Shown piece by piece: positions 3,130 to 52,652 of a DNA stretch of 64,000 nt; positions within the stretch are counted from its first letter, which is position 1; the number at the start of each line of letters is the position of its first letter. The notes beneath the pieces are model-generated. The model searched no databases. It saw only the letters and a list, made by a program, of their open reading frames with translations, and was not told where the DNA came from. Source of the stretch: Candidatus Sungiibacteriota bacterium (GTDB lineage: Bacteria > Patescibacteriota > Minisyncoccia > Sungbacterales > HO2-52-23). A program made the position numbers and the translations under genes. The stretch spans positions 8,152 through 72,151 of the forward strand of contig JACOYX010000015.1 of NCBI GenBank assembly GCA_016181585.1, given 5' to 3'.

Positions 3130-4164
3130 TTATTTTTCAATACAAGTGTTATAAAATTCCTTTATTTTTTCCCGAAGGGATCCGCTATTCTCCATCTCTT
3201 CGATAAATTTTTCCGGAATTATCGATATGCCGTGAAGCGCTCCGAGGAGGGATCCTGTAATTGCGGCGTTTGAATCGGTGTCGCCGCCCATACGGATGCA
3301 GTCCGCGATACAGTCGAAATTTTGCGGATTTCGCAGAAAAGCGGCGTATGAGGTGCCAAGCGAATTTATGGCGGAAAAAGCCGCTTTGGTGCCTCCTCCG
3401 AAACGCATGCTGATCTGGCGCGGCGTTTCGCGTGCAAGCGAGCCGTTTTCTTTCATGGCTGAAAGCAGTGCGATTTGCCGGTAAATGGGCGTTTCGGGTG
3501 AAAGGTATTGCTCAGTAAAAATAGCGTAGGCGCTTATATTCTCCAGAAAATCATTGGGGAGTTCATGGCTCGTCTGTCGGGCAAGAAAATAAACTGCATA
3601 GGCATGAACGCATCCGGCCGCGACGGCGGCAAAAGAACGGTGGGTCATGCGGGCGTAGTCTATGCACTCCTTCAGAAATCTCAAGCGGATAAATTCTTCC
3701 GGCGCTTTTGCGCACATGCTTTCCCGAAGTCCCATGGGCGAGATTTTCATCATAATGCCGTTTCCCTCGCCATGCGGTTCCCCGGATTTTGTCCAATGTG
3801 CTTCTTCTAAAAGCCTTTGGCAGGAATTTCTGGTGGACTTCCCCCATCCACGGCCGGCACTTACTTTGTATGCATCAACGTGTTTTCTCGCGAGTATCTC
3901 CATGTCGAATTTTCCGTTGGATTCAATTAGGCTTTCCATGGTAACAAGGGTGAGCTGGGTATCGTCGCTCCACGATCCTTTTGATTTGCCCACGACATCG
4001 GGAAACGGATGGGGGTTGATGGAGGGGCAAAAATATCCGTCAAGCGTGTAGCCGACCAATTCAAGTATCTCGATTTCATCCGGTGTCATGGTTTCAAACG
4101 GAACACCGAACGCATCGCATACGCCGATTGCCATAATGCATCCCATAAATTTATCAAGGTTCAT
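3130..4164 (-). CDS. ADP-ribosylglycohydrolase family protein
   Basis: C-terminal GGDTDSNAAITGSLLGALHG and N-terminal GVCDAFGVPFE motifs of the DraG/ARH family. Confidence 0.85.
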   Translation of the reverse strand: MNLDKFMGCIMAIGVCDAFGVPFETMTPDEIEILELVGYTLDGYFCPSINPHPFPDVVGKSKGSWSDDTQLTLVTMESLIESNGKFDMEILARKHVDAYKVSAGRGWGKSTRNSCQRLLEEAHWTKSGEPHGEGNGIMMKISPMGLRESMCAKAPEEFIRLRFLKECIDYARMTHRSFAAVAAGCVHAYAVYFLARQTSHELPNDFLENISAYAIFTEQYLSPETPIYRQIALLSAMKENGSLARETPRQISMRFGGGTKAAFSAINSLGTSYAAFLRNPQNFDCIADCIRMGGDTDSNAAITGSLLGALHGISIIPEKFIEEMENSGSLREKIKEFYNTCIEK

Positions 4165-4223
4165 TGTTTCGCTCCTTCTACTGTTTACTCCATAACAGTT
4201 TTTTTAAGAAGTGTCAAACGTTT

Positions 4224-4325: not shown

Positions 4326-4901
4326 ATGTTCTCACTTAAAAAAACAGTAATTATCGCCGCTGTGGCGATTGTCTTTGGGGGTTTTGGCGGATATAAAATC
4401 GGGAGCATTGCGTTTGAAGAAACGAAAGCGCCCGAGAGGATGGAAGAAAAAAAGATAACCGAGGGTGCGTTGAACCTCAAGGCAAGCCCGGCGGAAGTTC
4501 CTCTGAAGAAACCTAATCTGGTGCAGGTTCCTCCGCCTGCCCCGCAAACAAGTGCAGGCGCAGGGGAAGGCGGAAAGATTGCAATGAATGAACAAGCGGC
4601 GGGAATGAGTGTTGCCGTCGCAAACGTATCGCTCCCGGTATCCGGGTGGGTGGCGATTCACGAAGATGCGGGAGGGAAACCGGGGAAAATCCTGGGTGCG
4701 CGCCGTTTCGAGAAAGGAACGCATGCGGGTGTTGTAGAACTGCTTCGCAAAACGGAGGACGGCAAGGCATACTACGCCATGCTTCATGCCGACGATGGCG
4801 ACCGCTTGTTTGATGCAAAAAAAGATATGCCCATGAAAGATGTATCCGGTGCGGCGGTGATGGCAAAATTTAATACGGATCTGGTACCTACTTTGCAATA
4901 A
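4326..4901 (+). CDS. hypothetical membrane-anchored protein
   Basis: N-terminal TM helix, Pro-rich linker, C-terminal beta-rich domain (GWVAIHEDAGGKPGKILG). TTGCTT-N17-TATTAT promoter upstream. Confidence 0.6.
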   Translation: MFSLKKTVIIAAVAIVFGGFGGYKIGSIAFEETKAPERMEEKKITEGALNLKASPAEVPLKKPNLVQVPPPAPQTSAGAGEGGKIAMNEQAAGMSVAVANVSLPVSGWVAIHEDAGGKPGKILGARRFEKGTHAGVVELLRKTEDGKAYYAMLHADDGDRLFDAKKDMPMKDVSGAAVMAKFNTDLVPTLQ

Positions 4902-4905
4902 ATTT

Positions 4906-5202
4906 GTGAAAAAAATTTATATCAGCGCATTTATTTTCTTTGGATTTCTTCTCCAGCTTTTAATGCACGGACTGCTTGAGATTTGGTATATCAATCTTCT
5001 CCTTGCCGATTTTGGGCGATATGGATTTGGATTGGAATGGGATCAGTGGGAGTTACTGCATAATGTTTTTACTCTTGTGTTTTTAGTCGGCGGATTGTGG
5101 ATGGGGTATTCGCAAGGGAAATATTGGTGGCGCCGTATTTATGAACCGATACCGTGGTTTCGGCCGCTTCAAAAAATCAATTCAACTTCTTATACGCGAT
5201 AA
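4906..5202 (+). CDS. hypothetical small membrane protein
   Basis: GTG start; two hydrophobic helices. The 3' end overlaps the prmC ORF by 62 nt, so the boundaries of one of the two are uncertain. Confidence 0.4.
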   Translation: MKKIYISAFIFFGFLLQLLMHGLLEIWYINLLLADFGRYGFGLEWDQWELLHNVFTLVFLVGGLWMGYSQGKYWWRRIYEPIPWFRPLQKINSTSYTR

Positions 5203-7978: not shown

Positions 7979-9307
7979 ATGAAAACCTACGATTATCTCA
8001 TTATCGGAAATGGCATAGCGGGGGTTACTGCCGCGGAAACTATCCGCGAGCATGATGCTTCGGGAACCATTGCGATCGTCTCTCACGAACCGCATGTTTT
8101 GTATTCACGCGTGCTTCTCCCCGCGTATTTAAAAAAAAGAATTCCGCGTGAAAAAGTTTTTTTACGGACACAGGAGGATTTCAATATACGCCGCATTGAT
8201 TGTTATTTGAACGAAGCAGTTGTTTTCGCGGATACGGCGAGAAAGCAGATAGATTGCGAAAGCGGCTTTTCGCTGGGGTACAACAAATTGCTTATTGCTT
8301 CGGGCGGAAGGGTGCGGGACTGGGAGCACTGCAACGGCCAAGGGATTTACCCCGTTAGAACGCCGCCGACTCTGCCGGAGGTAAAAAAAGCCGATGGGGA
8401 GTATAATGCTACCATAAGCAGGTCGCGAAGCGCTCGTTCTAACGGGGTTTACCGCCTGCAGACGCTTGATGATGCGGATGTTATATTGCGCTTGCTTCCA
8501 CATTTGCAAAGTCCGCTAGTGATTGGCGCGTCTTTTATTGGTCTCGAATTTCTTGAAATTCTCACCCTCAATAATACGCCCCCGAAAGTAGTTGTGCGCG
8601 ACACGCATTTTTTGCGGCGCCTGCTCGATAGGGCGGGCGGGGAAATGCTTCAGGCGCGTTTTGAGATGAAAGGAATTTCGGTAGAATGCCAGCAGGAAAT
8701 TGTGCGTGTCTTTCTGGAAGAAGGGAAAGTCCATATCAAAACTTCGCTTGAACGCGATTTTTCGAGCGATGCGGTTTTTCTCGGGATCGGTATCCAGCGG
8801 AACATGGAATTTCTTGCCGGTTCCGGTGTGGCAATAAACGGAGGAGGTGTCGAGACGGATGAATATCTTCGTACCAATGTAGAAAACGTATTTGCCGCTG
8901 GTGATGCGGCGGATTATATGGATGTTATCGCGAAGAAGCGCCGCATGGTAGGGAACTGGACGCATGCTTTTTTGCAGGGAAAGGCTGTTGGCCGCACGAT
9001 GGCGGGGAAGCCGGAGCTTTTTAAATCAGTGCCTGCTTATTCAATTACGAACTTCGGTTTTCAAATCACGGCGGTTGGAGAAACAGATGATGCGCTTGAA
9101 ACTTTTGTGCAATTTGATGAAGAGCGAAATCGCTATGCGCGTTTTTTTATAAAAGAAGACCATATTGCGGGGGCGGCGCTGATTAATAAATTTACCGACA
9201 AGCCGCACGTTGCTCGGCTCATTGAAACCCAATCTTCCGTGAGGGATTTTCGGGCGGAACTTCGCGATCCATTGTTTGACATACAAAAGATACCAATAGT
9301 AGAATAG
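7979..9307 (+). CDS. FAD/NAD(P)-dependent pyridine nucleotide-disulfide oxidoreductase (ferredoxin/rubredoxin-reductase-like)
   Basis: YDYLIIGNGIAGVTAAE dinucleotide fold, VIGASFIGLEF second fold, AAGDAA. Carries a 34-codon in-frame insertion (see repeat 8346..8455). Confidence 0.85.
   Translation: MKTYDYLIIGNGIAGVTAAETIREHDASGTIAIVSHEPHVLYSRVLLPAYLKKRIPREKVFLRTQEDFNIRRIDCYLNEAVVFADTARKQIDCESGFSLGYNKLLIASGGRVRDWEHCNGQGIYPVRTPPTLPEVKKADGEYNATISRSRSARSNGVYRLQTLDDADVILRLLPHLQSPLVIGASFIGLEFLEILTLNNTPPKVVVRDTHFLRRLLDRAGGEMLQARFEMKGISVECQQEIVRVFLEEGKVHIKTSLERDFSSDAVFLGIGIQRNMEFLAGSGVAINGGGVETDEYLRTNVENVFAAGDAADYMDVIAKKRRMVGNWTHAFLQGKAVGRTMAGKPELFKSVPAYSITNFGFQITAVGETDDALETFVQFDEERNRYARFFIKEDHIAGAALINKFTDKPHVARLIETQSSVRDFRAELRDPLFDIQKIPIVE
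8346..8455. mobile_element. F4 110-nt palindromic element inserted in frame in the oxidoreductase CDS
   Basis: TTTACCCCGTTAGA ... CTAACGGGGTTTACCGC. 13-nt perfect inverted repeat (8350-8362 / 8435-8447). Flanking GGATTTACC / GGGTTTACC duplication. Same length and ends as 49628..49737. Confidence 0.7.
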
Positions 9308-10072
9308 ATGCATATTATAATAAATTTAATTAACATGTTTTTTATGGAAGAATCCAACAATGAAGGCAACGCACAGGCAGTGAATAGCAATAATACCCCA
9401 AGTCCATTCCTTATTCCCGGCGCTATTGTCGTGTCCGGCGTTTTGATAGCGGGCGCGATTATATATACCAACTCCTTCGGGGCGCCTGCGGGCGGCAACA
9501 ATCTTGCCGGAGCAGGCACGGCGCCCATTATCAAAGAAGATCTCTCCGACAATGACCCAATGCTCGGTAGTCCCGAAGCGCCGGTTACTGTTGTTGAGTT
9601 TGCCGACTTCCAATGTCCGTTTTGCGGAAAATTTTTTAAAACAGTAATGCCCCAGCTTACGGAAAAATATATAAAAACAGGAAAGGTTAAATTTGTATAC
9701 CGTGATTTCGCATTTTTGGGCGAAGAATCGGAATTTTCCGCTTCCGCCGCGGAGTGCGCCAAAGAACAGGGGAAATATTGGGAGTACCACGATTATCTGT
9801 TTGGTCATCAAAATGGAGAAAACCAAGGAGCTTTTGATAAAAAAAATCTGAAACAGTTTGCTCGCGCATTAGGTCTAAACGGAGGGCAATTTGATACATG
9901 CCTCAACAGCGATAAATATCTGGAGGAAGTGCGGAGTGATACGGAAGCGGGGCGTGCGGTTGGAGTCAGCGGAACACCCACAACGTTTGTGAATGGCAAG
10001 GCGATTGTGGGTGCGGTTCCTTTTGCCCAATTTGAGGCGGCGATTGCTGAAGCGTTAAAAAAAGCAAAATAA
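9308..10072 (+). CDS. DsbA-family thiol:disulfide oxidoreductase, membrane-anchored
   Basis: TM helix, then VVEFADFQCPFCGKF (CPFC active site). Start could be ATG 9335 or 9344. Confidence 0.85.
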   Translation: MHIIINLINMFFMEESNNEGNAQAVNSNNTPSPFLIPGAIVVSGVLIAGAIIYTNSFGAPAGGNNLAGAGTAPIIKEDLSDNDPMLGSPEAPVTVVEFADFQCPFCGKFFKTVMPQLTEKYIKTGKVKFVYRDFAFLGEESEFSASAAECAKEQGKYWEYHDYLFGHQNGENQGAFDKKNLKQFARALGLNGGQFDTCLNSDKYLEEVRSDTEAGRAVGVSGTPTTFVNGKAIVGAVPFAQFEAAIAEALKKAK

Positions 10073-10073
10073 T

Positions 10074-10310
10074 ATGACAAGCGTAACAATGTTTACAACT
10101 CCCTATTGCGCATACTGCAAAATGGCAAAGATTTTTTTTGAAAAGCATAATATTGAGTATTCGGAAAAAGATGTTGCGGCAGATACTGTGGCGCGCGATG
10201 ATATGATTAAAAAATCGGGGCAATTTGGGGTGCCGGTTTTTGAAATAAATGGGAAAATTATTATCGGGTTTGACCAGTCCCGATTGAAAGAATCGCTGGG
10301 AATTTCATGA
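10074..10310 (+). CDS. glutaredoxin-like protein (NrdH/YruB type)
   Basis: 78 aa; TTPYCAYCKMAK CxxC; GVPVFEING. Confidence 0.85.
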   Translation: MTSVTMFTTPYCAYCKMAKIFFEKHNIEYSEKDVAADTVARDDMIKKSGQFGVPVFEINGKIIIGFDQSRLKESLGIS

Positions 10311-10819
10311 GTTTTAAAAAATTTTTTCTACCGGTTATTTTTGCGGTTTTAATGGCAAGTTCGCTCTTTTTTTGGTTTCGGCGAGACAATACTACGGAAG
10401 AAATTCGCGAACGGAAAATTCCGCAAACGGAATTTCGTACGCTTGAAGGGAAAACTATCAATCTTGGCGGCGAAGATGTTCCGCTGATTGTGAATGTATG
10501 GGCGACGTGGTGCCCTTTTTGCCTGAAGGAAATGGAAAGCTTTGCGGAGCTTGAAAAAAAATTTGCAGGGAAAATTAAGGTTGTACTGGTGAATCGCGGG
10601 GAAGATGCGAGTGCAGTAATGGATTATATACATCGTATACCGCAATTGGCGAGTACAACCACGGTGGCGCTTGATGAAAAAGATGCCTTTTATTCCGCAA
10701 TCGGCGGATTTTCGATGCCGGAGACACTTTTTGTGGATGCGAAGGGGATCATTCGCTATCACAAGCGCGGACCGATGGAGTGGGAAGAAATAAAAAGGAG
10801 AGCGGAAGAGCTCCTATAA
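10307..10819 (+). CDS. TlpA/ResA-like thioredoxin-fold thiol-disulfide oxidoreductase, membrane-anchored
   Basis: TM helix; VNVWATWCPFCLKEM; 4-nt overlap with the upstream gene. Confidence 0.85.
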   Translation: MSFKKFFLPVIFAVLMASSLFFWFRRDNTTEEIRERKIPQTEFRTLEGKTINLGGEDVPLIVNVWATWCPFCLKEMESFAELEKKFAGKIKVVLVNRGEDASAVMDYIHRIPQLASTTTVALDEKDAFYSAIGGFSMPETLFVDAKGIIRYHKRGPMEWEEIKRRAEELL

Positions 10820-10824
10820 TTTTT

Positions 10825-11475
10825 ATGGATCAACAAAACGCAGCAACAGAAAATACTCCAAAACCCCAAGACAAAAAACTCCGCATGGAGCAGGCGATAA
10901 AGCGGAAGAAACGGAATCAGATTATGTGGGGCGTTGGTATCTTCGTACTTGGCGCCGCTCTTATCGGGAGCAGTTTTTGGTACGCGCGATGGAGCGAGAA
11001 AAATCTTCCCGGAGAATACTATCCTTCCGTAGGACAAGAGCATATCCCTTTGGGGCAGGAACCGCCAAAACCATATAATTCAAACCCACCTTCTTCGGGG
11101 GCGCATTTTGCGTCTCCCGCATTATGGAAAACATATGACTACGAAGTGCCCGATCAGCTTTTTATACATAATATGGAGCACGGCGGCGTTTGGATAAGCT
11201 ATCGTCCTGATGTTCCGAAAGAGACAATAGATCAGCTGACGCAAATTGCCGATGCGTTTGGCGGATCTAAAATAGTGATGGCGCCGCGTTCAGCAAATGA
11301 TGCGGATGTGGTGATTGCCGCATGGGAGCGGCTTTTGAAAATAGATGTAGAGGTGAAATTGAGCGATGCACAGATAAAAGAAATCGAGCGTTTTTATCGC
11401 GCGTTTAAAAATAAAGGTCCGGAATTTGTTCCGGACGGCATGGGAGGAGTGGATCCCAAGGAATTGATAAAATAA
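10825..11475 (+). CDS. DUF3105-domain membrane-anchored protein
   Basis: ORF track starts at 10780; ATG 10825 avoids overlap. TM helix; HNMEHGGVWISYRPD motif. Confidence 0.7.
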   Translation: MDQQNAATENTPKPQDKKLRMEQAIKRKKRNQIMWGVGIFVLGAALIGSSFWYARWSEKNLPGEYYPSVGQEHIPLGQEPPKPYNSNPPSSGAHFASPALWKTYDYEVPDQLFIHNMEHGGVWISYRPDVPKETIDQLTQIADAFGGSKIVMAPRSANDADVVIAAWERLLKIDVEVKLSDAQIKEIERFYRAFKNKGPEFVPDGMGGVDPKELIK

Positions 11476-11476
11476 T

Positions 11477-12463
11477 ATGCTTTACGACATCATTATCATC
11501 GGAGGCGGTCCCGCAGGGGCCGCGGCTGCGGTCTATGCCGCACGGAAAAAATTGAAAACACTTTTGCTCACGGAATCTTTCGGGGGGCAGTCTGTTGTTT
11601 CGGACGATATACAAAATTGGATTGGCGAACAGCATATATCCGGTTTTGATTTGGCGAAAAAAATGGAAGAGCATGTCCGCGCCTTTCCCGATTCGGTGGA
11701 GATAAAAATGCCGGAGCTTGCAAAAGGTGTGCGTGTTATTCCGTCCGAATCAAGCGGGCGTGCGAATGATTTTGAAGTTACTACCGGGCAAGGAAATATC
11801 TATACTGGGAAAGCGATCATTCTCGCTTCTGGCGCTCGCCGAAGGAAATTAAATATTCCCGGGGAAGATAAGTTTAATGGAAAGGGGGTGGCTTATTGCT
11901 CCACCTGCGACGCTCCGCTTTTTTCAGGCAAAAAAGTGGTAGTGGTGGGCGGCGGCAATGCGGGGCTTGAAGCGGTGCAGGATCTTTTCCCATATGCCGA
12001 GGAAGTCGTTTTGATGATACGAGGCGACTCGCTCAAGGGCGATCAGGTGGTGCAAGAGGAGATCAAAAAAAATCCGAAGTTGGCAGTTATTTTTAATGCA
12101 GAAATGCAGGAAGTTTTGGGCGACCGATTTGTGTCAGGCGTGCGGTATAAAGATAATAAAACGAATGAAGAGAAAACAATTGAAGCGGAAGGGGTGTTTG
12201 TAGAAATCGGTTCTGTGCCGAATTCCGAAGTGGTGAAAGATTTGGTGAAAATAGACCGATGGGGTCAGGTGGAGGTAAATACGAAACACTCGGCCACTTC
12301 GGCGCCCGGAATTTTTGCGGCTGGTGATGTGACCGACGATCCGTATAAGCAAAATAATATTTCCGTGGGAGACGGTGTGCGTGCCGCACTCGCGGCGTAT
12401 AACTATTTGCTTCAGCGCAAAAAAGAAAGCCCTGCGATGGCGAAAGAAAACGGCGGAAAATAA
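11477..12463 (+). CDS. trxB: thioredoxin-disulfide reductase
   Basis: [13 protein letters not shown], redox [23 protein letters not shown]. Confidence 0.88.
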
Positions 12464-48242: not shown

Positions 48243-49571
48243 TTATTTTGCTCGATAGCTCATTTCCCGCAACTTGTGGTGGTATTTTTTAGCGAATCGG
48301 TGGGATTCGTTGCGGACGTGCTCGAGAAAAAATTCCGCATCACGTGGAAGGGTGCGGAGCAAAATTGGTTCGGCGCGACAGGGTGTGTAGAGTTCTTCTT
48401 CGCGTTTTGCGAGTCCCACAATCATAATTTCTTTGGCAACGCCAAGCTCTTTTTGAGCGGTGTTTAGTGCTGAAAGCGCCACGCTGAGCTGTGGTTTTCC
48501 TCCGTCTATCAATATTACATCAGGATACTGCCATTCAGGATGCTGGAGACGGCGTTGAAGCACTTCCTGCATCATGGCAGAGTCATTTGGACCTAAGACT
48601 GTTTTAATTTTAAATTTTCGATACTCTGATTTTTTTGGATACCCGTTTACAAATACCACCATCGAACCGGTAGCTTCGGTGCCGGAAATATTGGATATAT
48701 CGTAGCCCTCCACACGCTTCAGGGTATTTGCGGTTTCGAGCGCCGTTTGAAGTGTTTTTTCGATATGAGCCCAGTTTCGTTTTGTGCGAAGAACTTTTTG
48801 CCGGTCAAGAGTGGTCGTATGCAAAAAGATATTTTTAAGTCCTTCAATTTGATTGCGCCGGAGCGCCGCTTTTTCAAACTGTTGGTTTTTTGCCGCTTCT
48901 TTCATTTCTTTTTTTAATTGTACAATGATTCGTTTTTTCTTGCCATTGAGTATTCCAATAATATCTTGGATATTCTTTTTATATTCCTCTTTTTTAATTT
49001 CCCACTCATGATTCATGATTCGTGATTCGTTATTCATGAATATACAGCAGTATCCAAGGCATCGGCCGATCTCGGTATTAAGGCAGGGACGCTTATGCGG
49101 CTTGAAACATGTGCAATAAGGAAAAATTTTGCGTAAAAAATGCAATACGGATTTTAATGCGGCGCCGCTGGTAAAAGGGCCGATGTGGTAAGCGATGGTT
49201 TTTGAGCTCCTGGCGGTTTGTTTTTGCGTAAACGAGCTATGGGTGATAAAAATTTTTGGAAATGCTTCGCGGGTGATGGCGGCATAAAAATAGCTCTTGT
49301 CGTCCCGAAGGACAATGTTGTACTTTGGGATATGATTTTTGATGTATTCAGCTTCCTTTATAAGTGCGTCTATTTCCGATTCCAATTCGCGCCATTCGAC
49401 ACGATCCGCTTCTGCAAGAAGCGATGTGACTTTTGTTCCGGCATTTTTCCGCCAATAGCTCGACAAGCGGCTCCGGAGATCGCGTGCTTTCCCGACATAT
49501 AGCATGTTTATACCCTTTTTAAAAAAATATATGCCTGGAGTATGGGGAATTTGTTCTGGTTTTTTCAGCAT
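48243..49571 (-). CDS. uvrC: excinuclease subunit UvrC, short form lacking C-terminal (HhH)2
   Basis: GIY-YIG (PGIYFF..YVGKA), UVR helix (FEKAALRRNQIEGL), RNase-H-like endonuclease (EGYDISN). 442 aa. Confidence 0.9.
   Translation of the reverse strand: MLKKPEQIPHTPGIYFFKKGINMLYVGKARDLRSRLSSYWRKNAGTKVTSLLAEADRVEWRELESEIDALIKEAEYIKNHIPKYNIVLRDDKSYFYAAITREAFPKIFITHSSFTQKQTARSSKTIAYHIGPFTSGAALKSVLHFLRKIFPYCTCFKPHKRPCLNTEIGRCLGYCCIFMNNESRIMNHEWEIKKEEYKKNIQDIIGILNGKKKRIIVQLKKEMKEAAKNQQFEKAALRRNQIEGLKNIFLHTTTLDRQKVLRTKRNWAHIEKTLQTALETANTLKRVEGYDISNISGTEATGSMVVFVNGYPKKSEYRKFKIKTVLGPNDSAMMQEVLQRRLQHPEWQYPDVILIDGGKPQLSVALSALNTAQKELGVAKEIMIVGLAKREEELYTPCRAEPILLRTLPRDAEFFLEHVRNESHRFAKKYHHKLREMSYRAK
49007..49040. 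repeat. F3 half-element inside the uvrC CDS
   Basis: CATGATTCATGATTCGTGATTCGTTATTCATGAA matches the dnaK-leader arm (about 25/30). Encodes FMNNESRIMNHE on the minus strand. Confidence 0.6.
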
Positions 49572-49627
49572 ATATTAATAGTATGTCAATACTCACCTAA
49601 TGACAAATCTCTAATTTTGATGTATAC

Positions 49628-49737
49628 TTTACCCCGTTAGAGATTTATATAGTACTAAACCAGTTTAAGAAAAAACCGACGTTATGCATTTATACCGCTA
49701 AGGTTTTTTCTTTCCATATCCCTAACGTGGTTTACGC
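49628..49737. repeat. F4 110-nt element, intergenic copy
   Basis: TTTACCCCGTTAGA ... CTAACGTGGTTTACGC with shared central AAAAAACCGA. Ends 2 nt before the uvrA ATG. Confidence 0.7.
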
Positions 49738-49739
49738 TT

Positions 49740-52652
49740 ATGAAGGCTTCAAAAACCCAGCAATACATATCGATCAAGGGTGCGCGGGTGCATAATCTGA
49801 AAAATATCAGTGTTGATATTCCGAAGCATAAGCTTGTGGTGATCACCGGGCTTTCCGGTTCCGGAAAATCTTCATTGGCGTTTGATACGATTTATGCTGA
49901 GGCGGAGCGGCGGTTTGTGGAATCACTGTCTTCCTATGCGCGCCAGTTTCTTGGGGTGAAAGATAAGCCGGATGTGGATTCGATTGACGGACTTTCGCCG
50001 GCGATTTCCATAGACCAGAAATCTATTTCCAAAAACCCGCGTTCAACCGTGGGAACCATTACGGAGATTTATGATTATCTCCGGATTTTATTTGCACGGG
50101 TGGGGAAGCCGTATTGTCCGAATTGCGGAAAAGCGGTGGGAAAGCAGACTGCGGATCAGATGGTAAGCGCAATTGAAAAAGTAAAAACAAAAAATGAAGT
50201 TTTAATATTGGCACCGATGGTGCGCGGAAAAAAAGGGGAGCACCACGGCATTTTGGAAGAAGTACAGCGTGCGGGATTTTTGCGCGTGCGCATCGACGGA
50301 GATATCCGCACGCTCGAGGATGCGCTTCAGGCGGTGCTCGATAAAAAGAAACAGCATTCCATCGAAGTGGTGGTTGATCGATTTTTTCTTGATGCAGATC
50401 TTGAGCGGAGCCGTATTCTGGATTCGGTGGAAAGCGCTTTAAAAATCGGCAAAGGTATTTTGATTGTGGCGAGCCGCAAAAACAGCCGCCCGCATGATGA
50501 AGACAAAATGGCGCAGGAACTTGCAGGAGATATTGTGTTTTCCGAGCACTTCGCTTGTTCCGACTGCGGCATCAATTTTCCTGCCATAGAACCGCGGACA
50601 TTTAGTTTTAATAGTCCCTATGGCGCATGTCCTGCTTGTACCGGGTTGGGTTCGACGCTTGAAGTTGATCCCGAGCTTGTATTTCCCAATAAGCGATTGA
50701 GTATTGCGGAAGGCGCGATTCGCCCGTGGGCCGCGGCGTCGCACCGGGTGGGACGGCAAAGTTGGTATTGGTGGATTTTATCCGATCTTGCGGAACGGCA
50801 TGGCTTTTCGCTTAATACGCAGCTTGAAAAACTTCCGCCTGAGGTGCTCAATCTTTTGCTCTATGGAGAAGGAAAAAAACAGGAAGGAGACAAGCGATCG
50901 GAGATTTTCGAAGGCATTGTATCGAATTTGAAACGCCGTTGGAAAGAAACCGACTCTGAATTTACGCGAGCGGAGATAGAAAGATATATGCTCGTCAAAG
51001 CATGCGAACTTTGCGGTGGCAAGCGCCTGCGAAGCGAGGCGCTGGCAGTGAAAATTGCAGGGAAATCCATTGCCAATGTTGCCGCGCTTCCTGTGGGAGA
51101 TGCTATTCCATTGTTTAAAAGCATCACGGGAGCCGGACAGACTACTTTTTCCGCCAATGAATTGAAAGTCGTGGCTCCGCTCATAAAAGAAATCGAGAAA
51201 CGGCTTGAATTTTTAAATGATGTAGGACTCGATTACTTGACGCTTGACCGCGAATCAACAACTCTTGCTGGCGGCGAGGCACAGCGGATACAGCTTGCAA
51301 CACAGATAGGCTCGCGCCTCACCGGCATTATTTATATTCTCGATGAGCCTTCGATCGGGTTGCACCCGCGCGACCACTCGCGGCTGATTAAGACGATTAA
51401 AGATCTCCGCGACCTCGGCAATTCCGTGGTGATGGTAGAGCACGATGCGGAAACCATGAGCGAGGCGGACTGGATTATCGACTTGGGGCCCGGAGCGGGG
51501 AAACATGGCGGTAAAGTGATATTCTCGGGAACGCCGAAACGGATTTTTAAGGCAAAGACCCTTACCGGCGATTATTTGTCCGGAAAAAAACACATCAAAC
51601 GCCCACTTGGAAGCTTAGCTTCCAAGTGGGAAAAAGGGGAGAAAAAATATCTTGTCATAATCGGCGCCAAGGAACATAACTTAAAAAATATCGACATAAA
51701 AATTCCGCTTGGGAAATTGGTTTGCATATCGGGGGTTTCCGGCTCCGGGAAATCGACGCTAATCAATGATATTCTCGCCAAAGCTTTGCTGGCGAAATTT
51801 TATAAAGCGCATCTCTTCCCAGGAGCTCACAAAGAAATTCTAGGAACGGAGTATCTTGATAAAGTGGTAGTGGTGGATCAGTCGCCCATCGGCAGAACGC
51901 CGCGTTCAAATCCGGTTACTTATACGGGCGCGTTCCAATTTATCCGTTCTCTCTTTGCGCAAACGCCCGAAGCGCGGGTGCGAGGATACGAAGCCGGAAG
52001 ATTTAGCTTTAATGTAAAAGGCGGTCGGTGCGAAGTTTGCGAAGGACAGGGAACAAAAAAAATAGAGATGTATTTTTTGCCGGATGTGTATGTAGAATGT
52101 GAAGAATGCCGCGGCCGGCGCTACAATCGCGAGGCGCTGGAAATTGAATATAATGGAAAAAATATTGCGGAAGTCCTTGAATTGTCGGTGGAAGAGGGGG
52201 TCGCATTTTTTTACGCAATCCCTTCCATCCATGCAAAGCTCGAAACTTTGCAGAAGGTGGGTCTTGGGTATGTGAAGCTGGGACAGCCGGCGCCCACGCT
52301 TTCCGGCGGGGAGGCGCAACGCGTAAAACTTGCCGCCGAGCTTTCGCGCCGTGACACCGGTGATACATTATATATACTTGATGAGCCGACTACGGGACTT
52401 CATTTCGAAGATGTGCAAAAACTTCTTCTGGTGCTGGACGCGTTGGTGCAGAAGGGGAATACGGTTCTTGTTATCGAGCATAATCTCGATATGCTTCGCA
52501 ATGCGGACTGGATTATTGATTTGGGGCCTGAAGGAGGCGCCAAGGGCGGTGAGCTTGTTGCCGAAGGAACTCCGGAAGATATATCAAAAGTGAAGCGGTC
52601 GTATACGGGACAGTGGCTGAAGATTAGGAAATTATCAGATTTAAGCCGATGA
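49740..52652 (+). CDS. uvrA: excinuclease subunit UvrA
   Basis: Two ABC modules ([18 protein letters not shown]), Zn modules, LSGGEAQR twice. Confidence 0.97.

Follow-up and report, generated by a model that had tools for sequence, protein, structure and literature searches.

An in-frame palindromic insertion in a Sungiibacteriota oxidoreductase gene belongs to a cross-phylum family of small elements whose termini also bound GIY-YIG nuclease genes

The DNA analyzed here is a 64,000-nt stretch of contig JACOYX010000015.1 from a Candidatus Sungiibacteriota bacterium (hereafter the window, with positions counted from its first letter), in which an oxidoreductase gene is crossed by a 102-nt segment that is a genuine insertion of a mobile palindromic element. 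The element belongs to a family defined by 14-bp terminal inverted repeats, of which 11 bases, ACCCCGTTAGA, are conserved and 3 covary. That a palindromic repeat can persist in frame within a gene for an enzyme is already known as a curiosity, and the window copy alone would be a modest finding; the family as a whole has one 11-nt terminus common to hundreds of small hairpins in distant, mostly uncultivated phyla, and the same terminus bounds thousands of copies of a single-domain GIY-YIG nuclease, which is among the smallest conceivable selfish genes. The reading preferred here, to which a probability of about 0.7 is given, is that the insert is a copy lacking an open reading frame (ORF) and resembling a MITE (a miniature transposable element with inverted repeats), and that its family is mobilised in trans by the 86-aa GIY-YIG nuclease.

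The host gene and the parts of the window copy are as follows, where L001 is the gene of the closest relative.

7979..9307, + strand: host ORF, a FAD/NAD(P)-dependent pyridine-nucleotide-disulfide oxidoreductase of 442 aa, from the ORF call and the Pfam domains of homologues
8346..8349, + strand: left flanking TTTA (target site), which with C8350 reads TTTAC and provides codons for I123-Y124; the empty site in L001 reads ATC TAC CGT
8349..8362, + strand: left terminal inverted repeat ACCCCGTTAGAACG, 14 nt, 100% complementary to the right arm and matching the family consensus
8350..8447, + strand: element core CCCC...GGGG, 98 nt, which with one TTTA makes 102 nt (residues 125-158)
8363..8434, + strand: interior, with partly decayed versions of the two internal hairpins of the subfamily, from alignment and consensus structure
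8435..8448, + strand: right terminal inverted repeat CGTTCTAACGGGGT, 14 nt, pairing perfectly with the left arm
8448..8452, + strand: right TTTA(C), part of the codons for V157-Y158

A first-pass annotation of the sequence had proposed 34 extra stop-free codons in this gene, and the ORF indeed runs through all 102 nt, reading ..NGQGIY-PVRTPPTLPEVKKADGEYNATISRSRSARSNGVY-RLQTLDDA... Homologues of the host protein carry the Pfam domains PF07992, PF00070 and PF18267, and its nearest solved relatives are NADH oxidase and rubredoxin/ferredoxin reductases. The nearest relatives in sequence are 408-409 aa long, and alignments of 21 and of 80 homologues leave the 34 residues unique to the window protein, with flanks that align unshifted and a gap of exactly 34 columns opposite the insert. 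As had been expected, all 80 of the 80 aligned homologues lack the segment, including the closest, P0002, at 408 aa and 83% protein identity. The insertion is thus unique to the window protein among the aligned homologues, but the element itself is not lineage-specific.

The empty site that had been anticipated is found in L001 (77% nucleotide and 83% protein identity to the window gene), which reads ..GGA ATC TAC CGT CTG CAG.. without interruption; its counterpart in the window reads ..GGG ATT TAC, then the 98-nt core and TTTA, then C CGC CTG CAG... From this comparison of the two DNAs, the event therefore added the core and one extra TTTA, amounting to 102 nt or 34 codons. Window 8346-8452 can be written as TTTA-CCCCGTTAGAACG...CGTTCTAACGGGG-TTTAC. 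The inverted arms had been described as perfect over 13 nt; they are perfect, and their length is 14 nt. GGGATTTACC and GGGGTTTACC are repeated 102 nt apart around the element, and of the 9-nt direct duplication proposed earlier the TTTA(C) part, 4-5 nt, is real; the GG(A/G) part is coincidental, because a Gly codon meets the GGGG of the right terminus by chance. The window copy thus shows several features expected of a MITE: terminal inverted repeats, a flank duplication with an empty site in a relative, small size, no coding capacity of its own, and multiple dispersed copies.

In the AlphaFold model of the host protein, the mean predicted local distance difference test score (pLDDT) is 91 and the predicted template modelling score is 0.88, and only residues 121-152 fall below a pLDDT of 50; in the model the insert is thus an unstructured loop of low confidence, which agrees with the loop placement suggested beforehand. 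Its place in the fold would be after the FAD-domain strand (GxG-I/V-Y) and before the RLQTLDDA strand, which itself precedes the NAD(P)-binding domain. The TTTAC into which this copy inserted had supplied the Ile-Tyr codons of the host gene; with core and duplication adding 102 nt free of stops, the gene stays open and a disordered loop of 34 residues would be translated. Translation of the insert is likely given the open frame, and the oxidoreductase carrying it may still be active.

The termini of the window copy exceed chance within the window itself, where TTTACCCCGTTAGA with at most 2 mismatches has 3 matches against 0.36 expected and CCGTTAGN{50,80}CTAACG (CCGTTAG-N50-80-CTAACG) has 2 matches against 0.04 expected. 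Scanning the contigs of species-representative genomes for exact ACCCCGTTAGN{65,95}CTAACGGGGT (ACCCCGTTAG-N65-95-CTAACGGGGT) bore out the idea that further copies exist elsewhere with the same ends and flanking duplications: ACCCCGTTAGA...TCTAACGGGGT bound at least 120 loci across many phyla, with an estimated few tens of chance matches for the whole genome collection, and more than 200 unique sites are known for the family overall. Among the Candidate Phyla Radiation (CPR) the hosts listed are Saccharibacteria and Moran-, Kaiser-, Uhr-, Buchanan-, Doudna-, Komeili-, Kerfeld-, Portnoy-, Staskawicz-, Zambryski-, Gribaldo- and Sungii-bacteria; the others are Omnitrophota, Desulfobacterota and other 'Deltaproteobacteria', Planctomycetota including Brocadiaceae, Nitrospirota, Cloacimonadota, Clostridia, Gammaproteobacteria and Bdellovibrionales. 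A scan of viral contigs gave 0 matches.

Among the loci listed, position 11 of the terminus, which lies beyond the 10 bases enforced by the scan, is A in 124 of 124, and positions 12-14 are complementary between the arms in 92, 84 and 69% despite their varying sequence, with complementarity dropping to the background of about 25-30% from position 15. The conserved position 11 and the covarying positions 12-14 therefore indicate that the listed loci are real elements. Identical TNNA is present on both sides in 85 of the 126 elements listed, with T at -3 in 122 and A at +3 in 121, and the flank is usually TTTA or its complement TAAA. The two central bases are TT/AA in 46, TG/CA in 16 and GA/TC in 17, and are almost never a palindromic dinucleotide (TTAA once, TATA never). 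Element sizes range from bare hairpins of 31 nt through a main class of 96-113 nt up to 263-277 nt, and some copies abut or are nested. A departure from the terminus consensus is accompanied by a complementary change in the other arm in 54 cases and is one-sided in 56, a count that the selection of pairs biases upward; the compensated deviations, about half, fit an enzyme that recognises paired termini.

The window copy belongs to a subfamily of about 104 nt. The first 23 nt of that copy recur in 56 metagenome contigs and two Saccharibacteria metagenome-assembled genomes (MAGs), which give 41 unique insertion sites on contigs of 37-60% GC, with a mean column identity of 81%. Its consensus structure is a terminal stem with two hairpins, which in the somewhat decayed window copy correspond to CCGCCGAC..GTCGGCGG and GCCGATGGGAG-TGTAATG-CTCCCATCGGC. 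Pairing in hairpin 2 is kept by compensatory change at columns 63/92 and 64/91, with 6 and 13 sequences changed on both sides. Nearly all copies of the subfamily are flanked TTTA...TTTAC, and when oriented by their asymmetric interior, 33 of 40 unique sites have TAAA/TAAA (equal to TTTA/TTTA in the orientation of the window) and 0 the reverse-complement flank; the flank is therefore locked to the orientation of the element. Occasional concerted switches of both flanks, to TGAA/TGAA or TTCA/TTCA, are seen. Most copies of the family have unrelated interiors.

As a side observation, unrelated subfamilies from Desulfobacterota, CPR and Clostridia (L118, L119, L047, L041, L091, L045 and that of the window) share a layout of two GC-rich internal hairpins, and the loop of their hairpin 2 resembles TATAATG, TGTAATG or TTTAAAG. 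This shared loop could be a promoter -10 or a protein contact.

The link between the termini and a protein comes from larger members of the family. A 277-nt element with the same termini (L150 1139-1415) encodes an 86-aa GIY-YIG protein, an architecture repeated in L033; L003 3771-4161 likewise reads terminus-ORF-terminus, with the ORF broken by a nested ORF-less copy, and the same order is found in L178, L181, L182, L186, L187 and L197. DNA from five independent contexts beyond L150, L003 and L033 thus confirms it, with the stop codon supplied by the T-RR-A flank. The termini are part of the protein: its C-terminus, ..SLTG, is the translated right terminus, and N-extended forms begin MNPVRE.., the translated left terminus. 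A protein search returned more than 5193 clusters at 90% identity, with Patescibacteria, Omnitrophota, Elusimicrobiota and Flavobacteriales among the named sources; in the best 120 of these, 61 have a length of exactly 86 aa, and the last residues of 89 are ..LTG, the translation of CTAACGGGG. Clustering at 50% leaves 4 representatives at E<=1e-30 and 1033 at E<=1e-10, a collapse which therefore implies a tight family about 70-80% identical across phyla, and more distant representatives also end ..YLTG.

The only domain of the protein is PF01541, the catalytic one. Its closest solved structure is UPF0213 protein BH0048 (1ZG2), at E 7.6e-10 over residues 2-66, with I-TevI at E 0.31; no NCBIfam model reaches its cut-off for this protein, TIGR01453 remaining below it. 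A single GIY-YIG domain with UPF0213 similarity places the family's ORF, as distinct from the window copy, with the prokaryotic Slx1/UPF0213 type. The Slx1-like proteins of prokaryotes are described as GIY-YIG domains that stand alone in minimal form (PMC1564403), and Slx1 cuts branched DNA close to its branch point (PMC6902002).

The genomic contexts of the ORF-bearing elements include the junction between yidC and jag (L186) and, twice, the position immediately upstream of TspO. In the latter, different GIY-YIG elements in different contexts (L187-L196 and L197-L203) each lie directly upstream of a TspO_MBR gene, and the TGA that ends the nuclease ORF overlaps the start of TspO (GGGATGAAG); the start codon of the downstream gene is thus made by terminus and flank. 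Two Elusimicrobiota differ at the yidC-jag junction: L186 2975-3261 carries the GIY-YIG element and the yidC stop is the TAG of the left terminus, while L206 1559-1700 carries an ORF-less copy of 109 nt and, after it, an orphan left terminus, with the yidC stop likewise the terminus TAG. No empty site for an ORF-bearing element was found there, as in the nearest relative (63% Jag identity) the site also holds an element, namely an ORF-less copy together with an orphan terminus.

Under the preferred reading, the GIY-YIG nuclease (Slx1/UPF0213 type) of the ORF-bearing members, about 280 nt in length, would mobilise its own element and, in trans, the ORF-less hairpins as well. It would recognise the paired termini at the base of a hairpin or cruciform and cut with a short stagger at the T-NN-A flanks, and the ends may then be rejoined by host functions, ligation or repair, a step that is speculative. 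GIY-YIG enzymes such as I-TevI leave 2-nt 3' overhangs. Such a sticky-end model would explain a flank that is heritable and locked to orientation, as well as the rarity of palindromic NN. The role of the nuclease as mobilising enzyme and its cleavage chemistry are what we infer; the sharing of termini between ORF-less elements and GIY-YIG genes and the multiplication of ORF-less copies across genomes are observed.

Several points weigh against this reading. Non-identical flanks, often inverted (TTCA..TGAA), are present on 41 of the 126 listed elements and are not explained by a simple duplication model, and the GIY-YIG elements L178, L181, L186 and L150 have no clean flank duplication. Copying from the target accounts better than sticky ends do for the concerted switches of both flanks within subfamilies. 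Identical GIY-YIG proteins were each seen in one genomic context only, giving no direct sign of recent multi-copy activity; no GIY-YIG gene of the family lies within the 64-kb window, and comparison of ORF-less interiors with GIY-YIG elements gave no similarity beyond the termini. GIY-YIG nucleases are hydrolytic and none is known to transpose DNA by cut and paste, which would leave the joining of the ends to host ligation or repair. Descent of the ORF-less copies from a GIY-YIG element by deletion was considered as a separate idea and rejected, the similarity being limited to the termini.

A bolder proposal, put forward tentatively and at somewhat less than an even chance, is that the ACCCCGTTAGA/TCTAACGGGGT termini define an undescribed class of minimal mobile element, a unit of about 280 bp whose sole gene is an 86-aa nuclease partly encoded by the terminus; this nuclease would move the unit together with ORF-less hairpins of 31 to about 130 nt. 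It would recognise structure and cleave where the paired termini meet their base, with a 2-nt stagger and host ligation to follow, which would also account for the TNNA flank. Horizontal transfer would carry the elements among CPR bacteria, Omnitrophota, Desulfobacterota, Planctomycetota and others, and proteins would now and then gain a loop. If the nuclease is the engine, transposition would have a route that belongs to none of the DDE, HUH, serine and tyrosine recombinase families. A large set of proteins annotated as 'GIY-YIG nuclease family protein' would gain a function, and one origin of the lineage-specific loops and altered gene ends seen in streamlined CPR genomes would be explained.

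The flank evidence can also be taken to describe an ordinary MITE moved by a DDE transposase, for example one like IS1380/piggyBac, with the GIY-YIG ORF as cargo or as a gene that acquired the ends. Terminal inverted repeats with a short target duplication are the classical DDE signature, the flank consensus pooled over orientations is palindromic (R-TNNA-Y), and both flanks sometimes switch together (TTTA to TTCA), as expected if they are copied from the target. Ends that begin CC(C) and a 4-bp T..A target duplication (TTAA in piggyBac) are shared with piggyBac/IS1380, a likeness that serves as a lead only; no DDE transposase was found here, and the target centre of the family is almost never palindromic. 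In about 1.3 Mb around more than 200 copies, no transposase ORF and no terminus pair of insertion sequence (IS) length was found, and the terminus pairs of IS size (0.4-4 kb, with matching flanks) are only pairs of separate small copies, as the maps of metagenome loci also show. The neighbouring ORFs of 150 aa or longer, compared across 120 loci, include no recurrent family. In the window, inspected by eye from N-termini with no domain search run, none of the 56 ORFs is obviously transposase-like. The coupling of the flank to an asymmetric interior (33 of 40 compared to 0) would be unusual for a symmetric DDE synapse, and thousands of GIY-YIG ORFs have a C-terminus encoded by the terminus, so that a DDE enzyme is regarded as an unlikely mover of the family.

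The consistent orientation of the target, approximately TT[T/G/C]A[C/T] with C following TTTA in 18 of 23 cases and TTGA in 10 of 11, raises a further alternative: movement as single-stranded DNA by an HUH (Y1) enzyme, as for IS200/IS605-derived palindromes or REPINs with their REP-associated tyrosine transposases (RAYTs), in which the element inserts beside a short asymmetric motif and bears its own copy of that motif at one end. The insertion orientation is fixed relative to the TT[T/G/C]A[C/T] motif, the elements are hairpin-rich doublets of about 100 nt, and a gene between inverted dispersed repeats is the RAYT arrangement. One ORF in L104 (about 3179-4170, beginning ..MPRQARLDAPGILHHVMVRG..) looks by eye like an IS200-like/RAYT transposase; it lies about 3 kb from an element, and a similar ORF is found in one other locus. 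A single arm of the family is, however, not self-palindromic as a repetitive extragenic palindrome (REP) is, the two arms pairing only with each other, and the gene between the termini is a GIY-YIG nuclease. No Y1 transposase was found inside or adjacent to any element, the ORFs of 150 aa or longer around 120 loci included. Elements of the IS200/IS605 group are not known to have terminal inverted repeats, whereas those of the window copy are perfect; that group is marked by left and right subterminal hairpins that differ and by insertion 3' of a fixed tetra- or pentanucleotide with no duplication; the oriented target preference and orientation coupling are likenesses to this group that are insufficient for membership. 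An HUH mechanism is thus judged very improbable. Resemblances to attC, REP, Tn3 and IS91 were dropped on the grounds of arm order, self-palindromy, end sequence or an absent duplication.

Within genes, persistence of the family goes with the reading frame, as the first-pass annotation had supposed. ORFs extending at least 150 nt on both sides read through 5 of 132 copies, and the insertion lengths of these five (93, 102, 108, 108 and 111 nt) are all multiples of three. The palindromic termini, in either orientation, translate as ..PVR..SNGV.. in one frame and ..TPLE..LTGF.. in another, leaving two of three frames open, and the third meets the TAG in CGTTAG. At 12 of 208 unique ORF-less sites, an upstream ORF of 100 codons or more ends at this TAG, and the ORFs ended in this way include yidC in two Elusimicrobiota loci.

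The window contains a second copy, which had been placed correctly between uvrC and uvrA with the same ends, and no third.

49628..49734, + strand: second copy, of a different subfamily, with TTTA at 49628-31, core at 49632-49730 and TTTA at 49731-34

Its arms (49631-49644 and 49718-49731) are 86% complementary, and it lies within the 168-nt gap of the divergent genes uvrC (48243-49571, -) and uvrA (49740-52652, +). The interiors of the two window copies are unrelated and only their ends match, so the central AAAAAACCGA that they had been said to share carries no weight and is a chance match; the interior of the second copy resembles instead the inner element of L135. The second copy starts two bases past a promoter-like -10, TATACT (49623-49628), with a -35-like ATGACA from 49600, and a promoter scan at 49600-49740 did not exceed the expectation from shuffled sequence. 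Its right arm stops 9 nt short of the uvrA ATG, or 5 nt short if the flanking TTTA is included, and it would form a 100-nt hairpin in the uvrA leader.

Both window copies fold as a long terminal stem around internal hairpins (z -2.4 to -4.0), the copy at 8350-8447 with z = -3.3 to -4.0. This folding, the compensatory changes that keep hairpin 2 paired at 63/92 and 64/91, and the position of the second copy in the uvrA leader are what could be expected if the hairpin were removed from the RNA, or acted as a structured or regulatory RNA element, with the protein unaltered and the in-frame state incidental. No Rfam family overlaps the elements, either at gathering thresholds on the window and on 13 loci or at permissive thresholds on 8300-8500, and most copies have unrelated interiors. 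The addition of a multiple of 3 nt without stops in 5 of 5 copies in long ORFs is expected only if the insert is translated, and no bacterial mechanism for excising such hairpins from mRNA is known. An explanation at the level of RNA is therefore hardly credible.

In comparing the family to known systems, the first-pass annotation had read the insert as a case of the Rickettsia palindromic element (RPE) phenomenon. RPEs are palindromes of about 100-150 nt that lie in frame in unrelated housekeeping genes, are translated compatibly with the fold and are also intergenic (PMC10969869). The window copy is, like these, a palindromic repeat in frame within an otherwise conserved protein, its translation being probable from the open frame. 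RPEs are confined to Rickettsia and relatives, whereas the ACCCCGTTAGA family spans many phyla; the family has sharp 14-bp termini, a TNNA duplication and GIY-YIG-encoding relatives, for which RPEs are not known, and about 4% of its copies are intragenic compared to nearly half of the RPEs of R. conorii. The comparison is thus supported as an analogy of behaviour and does not extend to homology.

Bacterial MITEs such as Correia/NEMIS, RUP, ERIC, Chunjie and QMITE are small, non-coding, multi-copy, bounded by inverted repeats and a duplication, and mostly intergenic, although occasionally in frame (PMC10969869, PMC5896051). The ends of classical MITEs are also those of a DDE insertion sequence in their own genome or lineage, whereas the sole ORF found here is the 86-aa nuclease, and the family differs further in its unrelated interiors, its sizes of 31 to about 280 nt and its one 11-nt terminus across phyla.

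In its architecture the family most resembles REPIN/RAYT systems (for background on REPs, see PMC3733652), with a different enzyme and with flank duplication. These also consist of dispersed hairpin doublets of about 100 nt and a small single-copy nuclease-type gene between inverted repeats, with conservation concentrated at the stem and a variable loop. The enzyme here is GIY-YIG rather than HUH, the arms are not self-palindromic REPs tagged with GTAG/CGTC, and the family has flank duplication and similarity across phyla, whereas REPIN repeats are species-specific.

Free-standing GIY-YIG homing endonucleases (the phage T4 Seg proteins, I-TevI) and UPF0213 proteins (YhbQ, BH0048) have the same catalytic domain, PF01541, and homing endonucleases are also selfish intergenic genes within conserved operons, as the element at yidC-jag in L186 is. 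Homing endonucleases differ in carrying a separate DNA-binding domain and in spreading to homologous sites by repair, whereas the family has inverted termini and ORF-less derivatives, its 86-aa proteins are catalytic-only and its copies lie at unrelated sites. UPF0213 proteins are treated as cellular proteins of unknown role. In literature of incomplete coverage no description was found of this repeat or of inverted termini around GIY-YIG genes, so that novelty is provisional: searching with the terminus sequence gave chance primer matches only, and work on MITEs in Patescibacteria and on GIY-YIG genes with inverted repeats, MITEs or target-site duplications does not describe the family.

Some loci show arrangements of interest in their own right. 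The 5960-nt metagenome contig L150 has at least 8 copies of 47-277 nt within 6 kb, including the GIY-YIG-bearing one. In L006, inverted repeats of about 320 bp (2046-2369 and 4832-5155), each with one element, surround the gene for a 686-aa predicted secreted protein, and the repeat unit is also present on another contig of that MAG (L031); these inverted copies around 2.7 kb were rejected as an autonomous element, the enclosed gene encoding a secreted protein and not a transposase. A supposed 'long' element in L159 was also rejected, being a truncated left end. In L016, L054 and L112 (Brocadiaceae) the palindrome runs about 11 nt past the element, as ..CAGGGGCTTC-ACCCC...GGGGT-GAACCCCTG.., and the element may have inserted within a second hairpin's loop, or the flanks may belong to a longer variant.

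Two homologues of the window oxidoreductase have insertions of other kinds. That in P0017 (L205) is not palindromic, while the gene for P0060 on another CPR contig (L204, about 909-1004) carries a different in-frame insertion of 78 nt in another loop. The latter is strongly palindromic (minimum free energy -46 kcal/mol over 96 nt), with an 11-nt perfect inner inverted repeat, CTGTCCCGACT/AGTCGGGACAG, an outer repeat CCCGGTA../..TACCGGG, a flanking direct repeat CTTGCCCG and termini unrelated to the ACCCCGTTAGA family. The window oxidoreductase gene is itself the first of a redox cluster, followed at 9308-12463 by DsbA/thioredoxin-like, redoxin-like, DUF3105-like and TrxB-like neighbours, and this gene order is kept in the relative L001.

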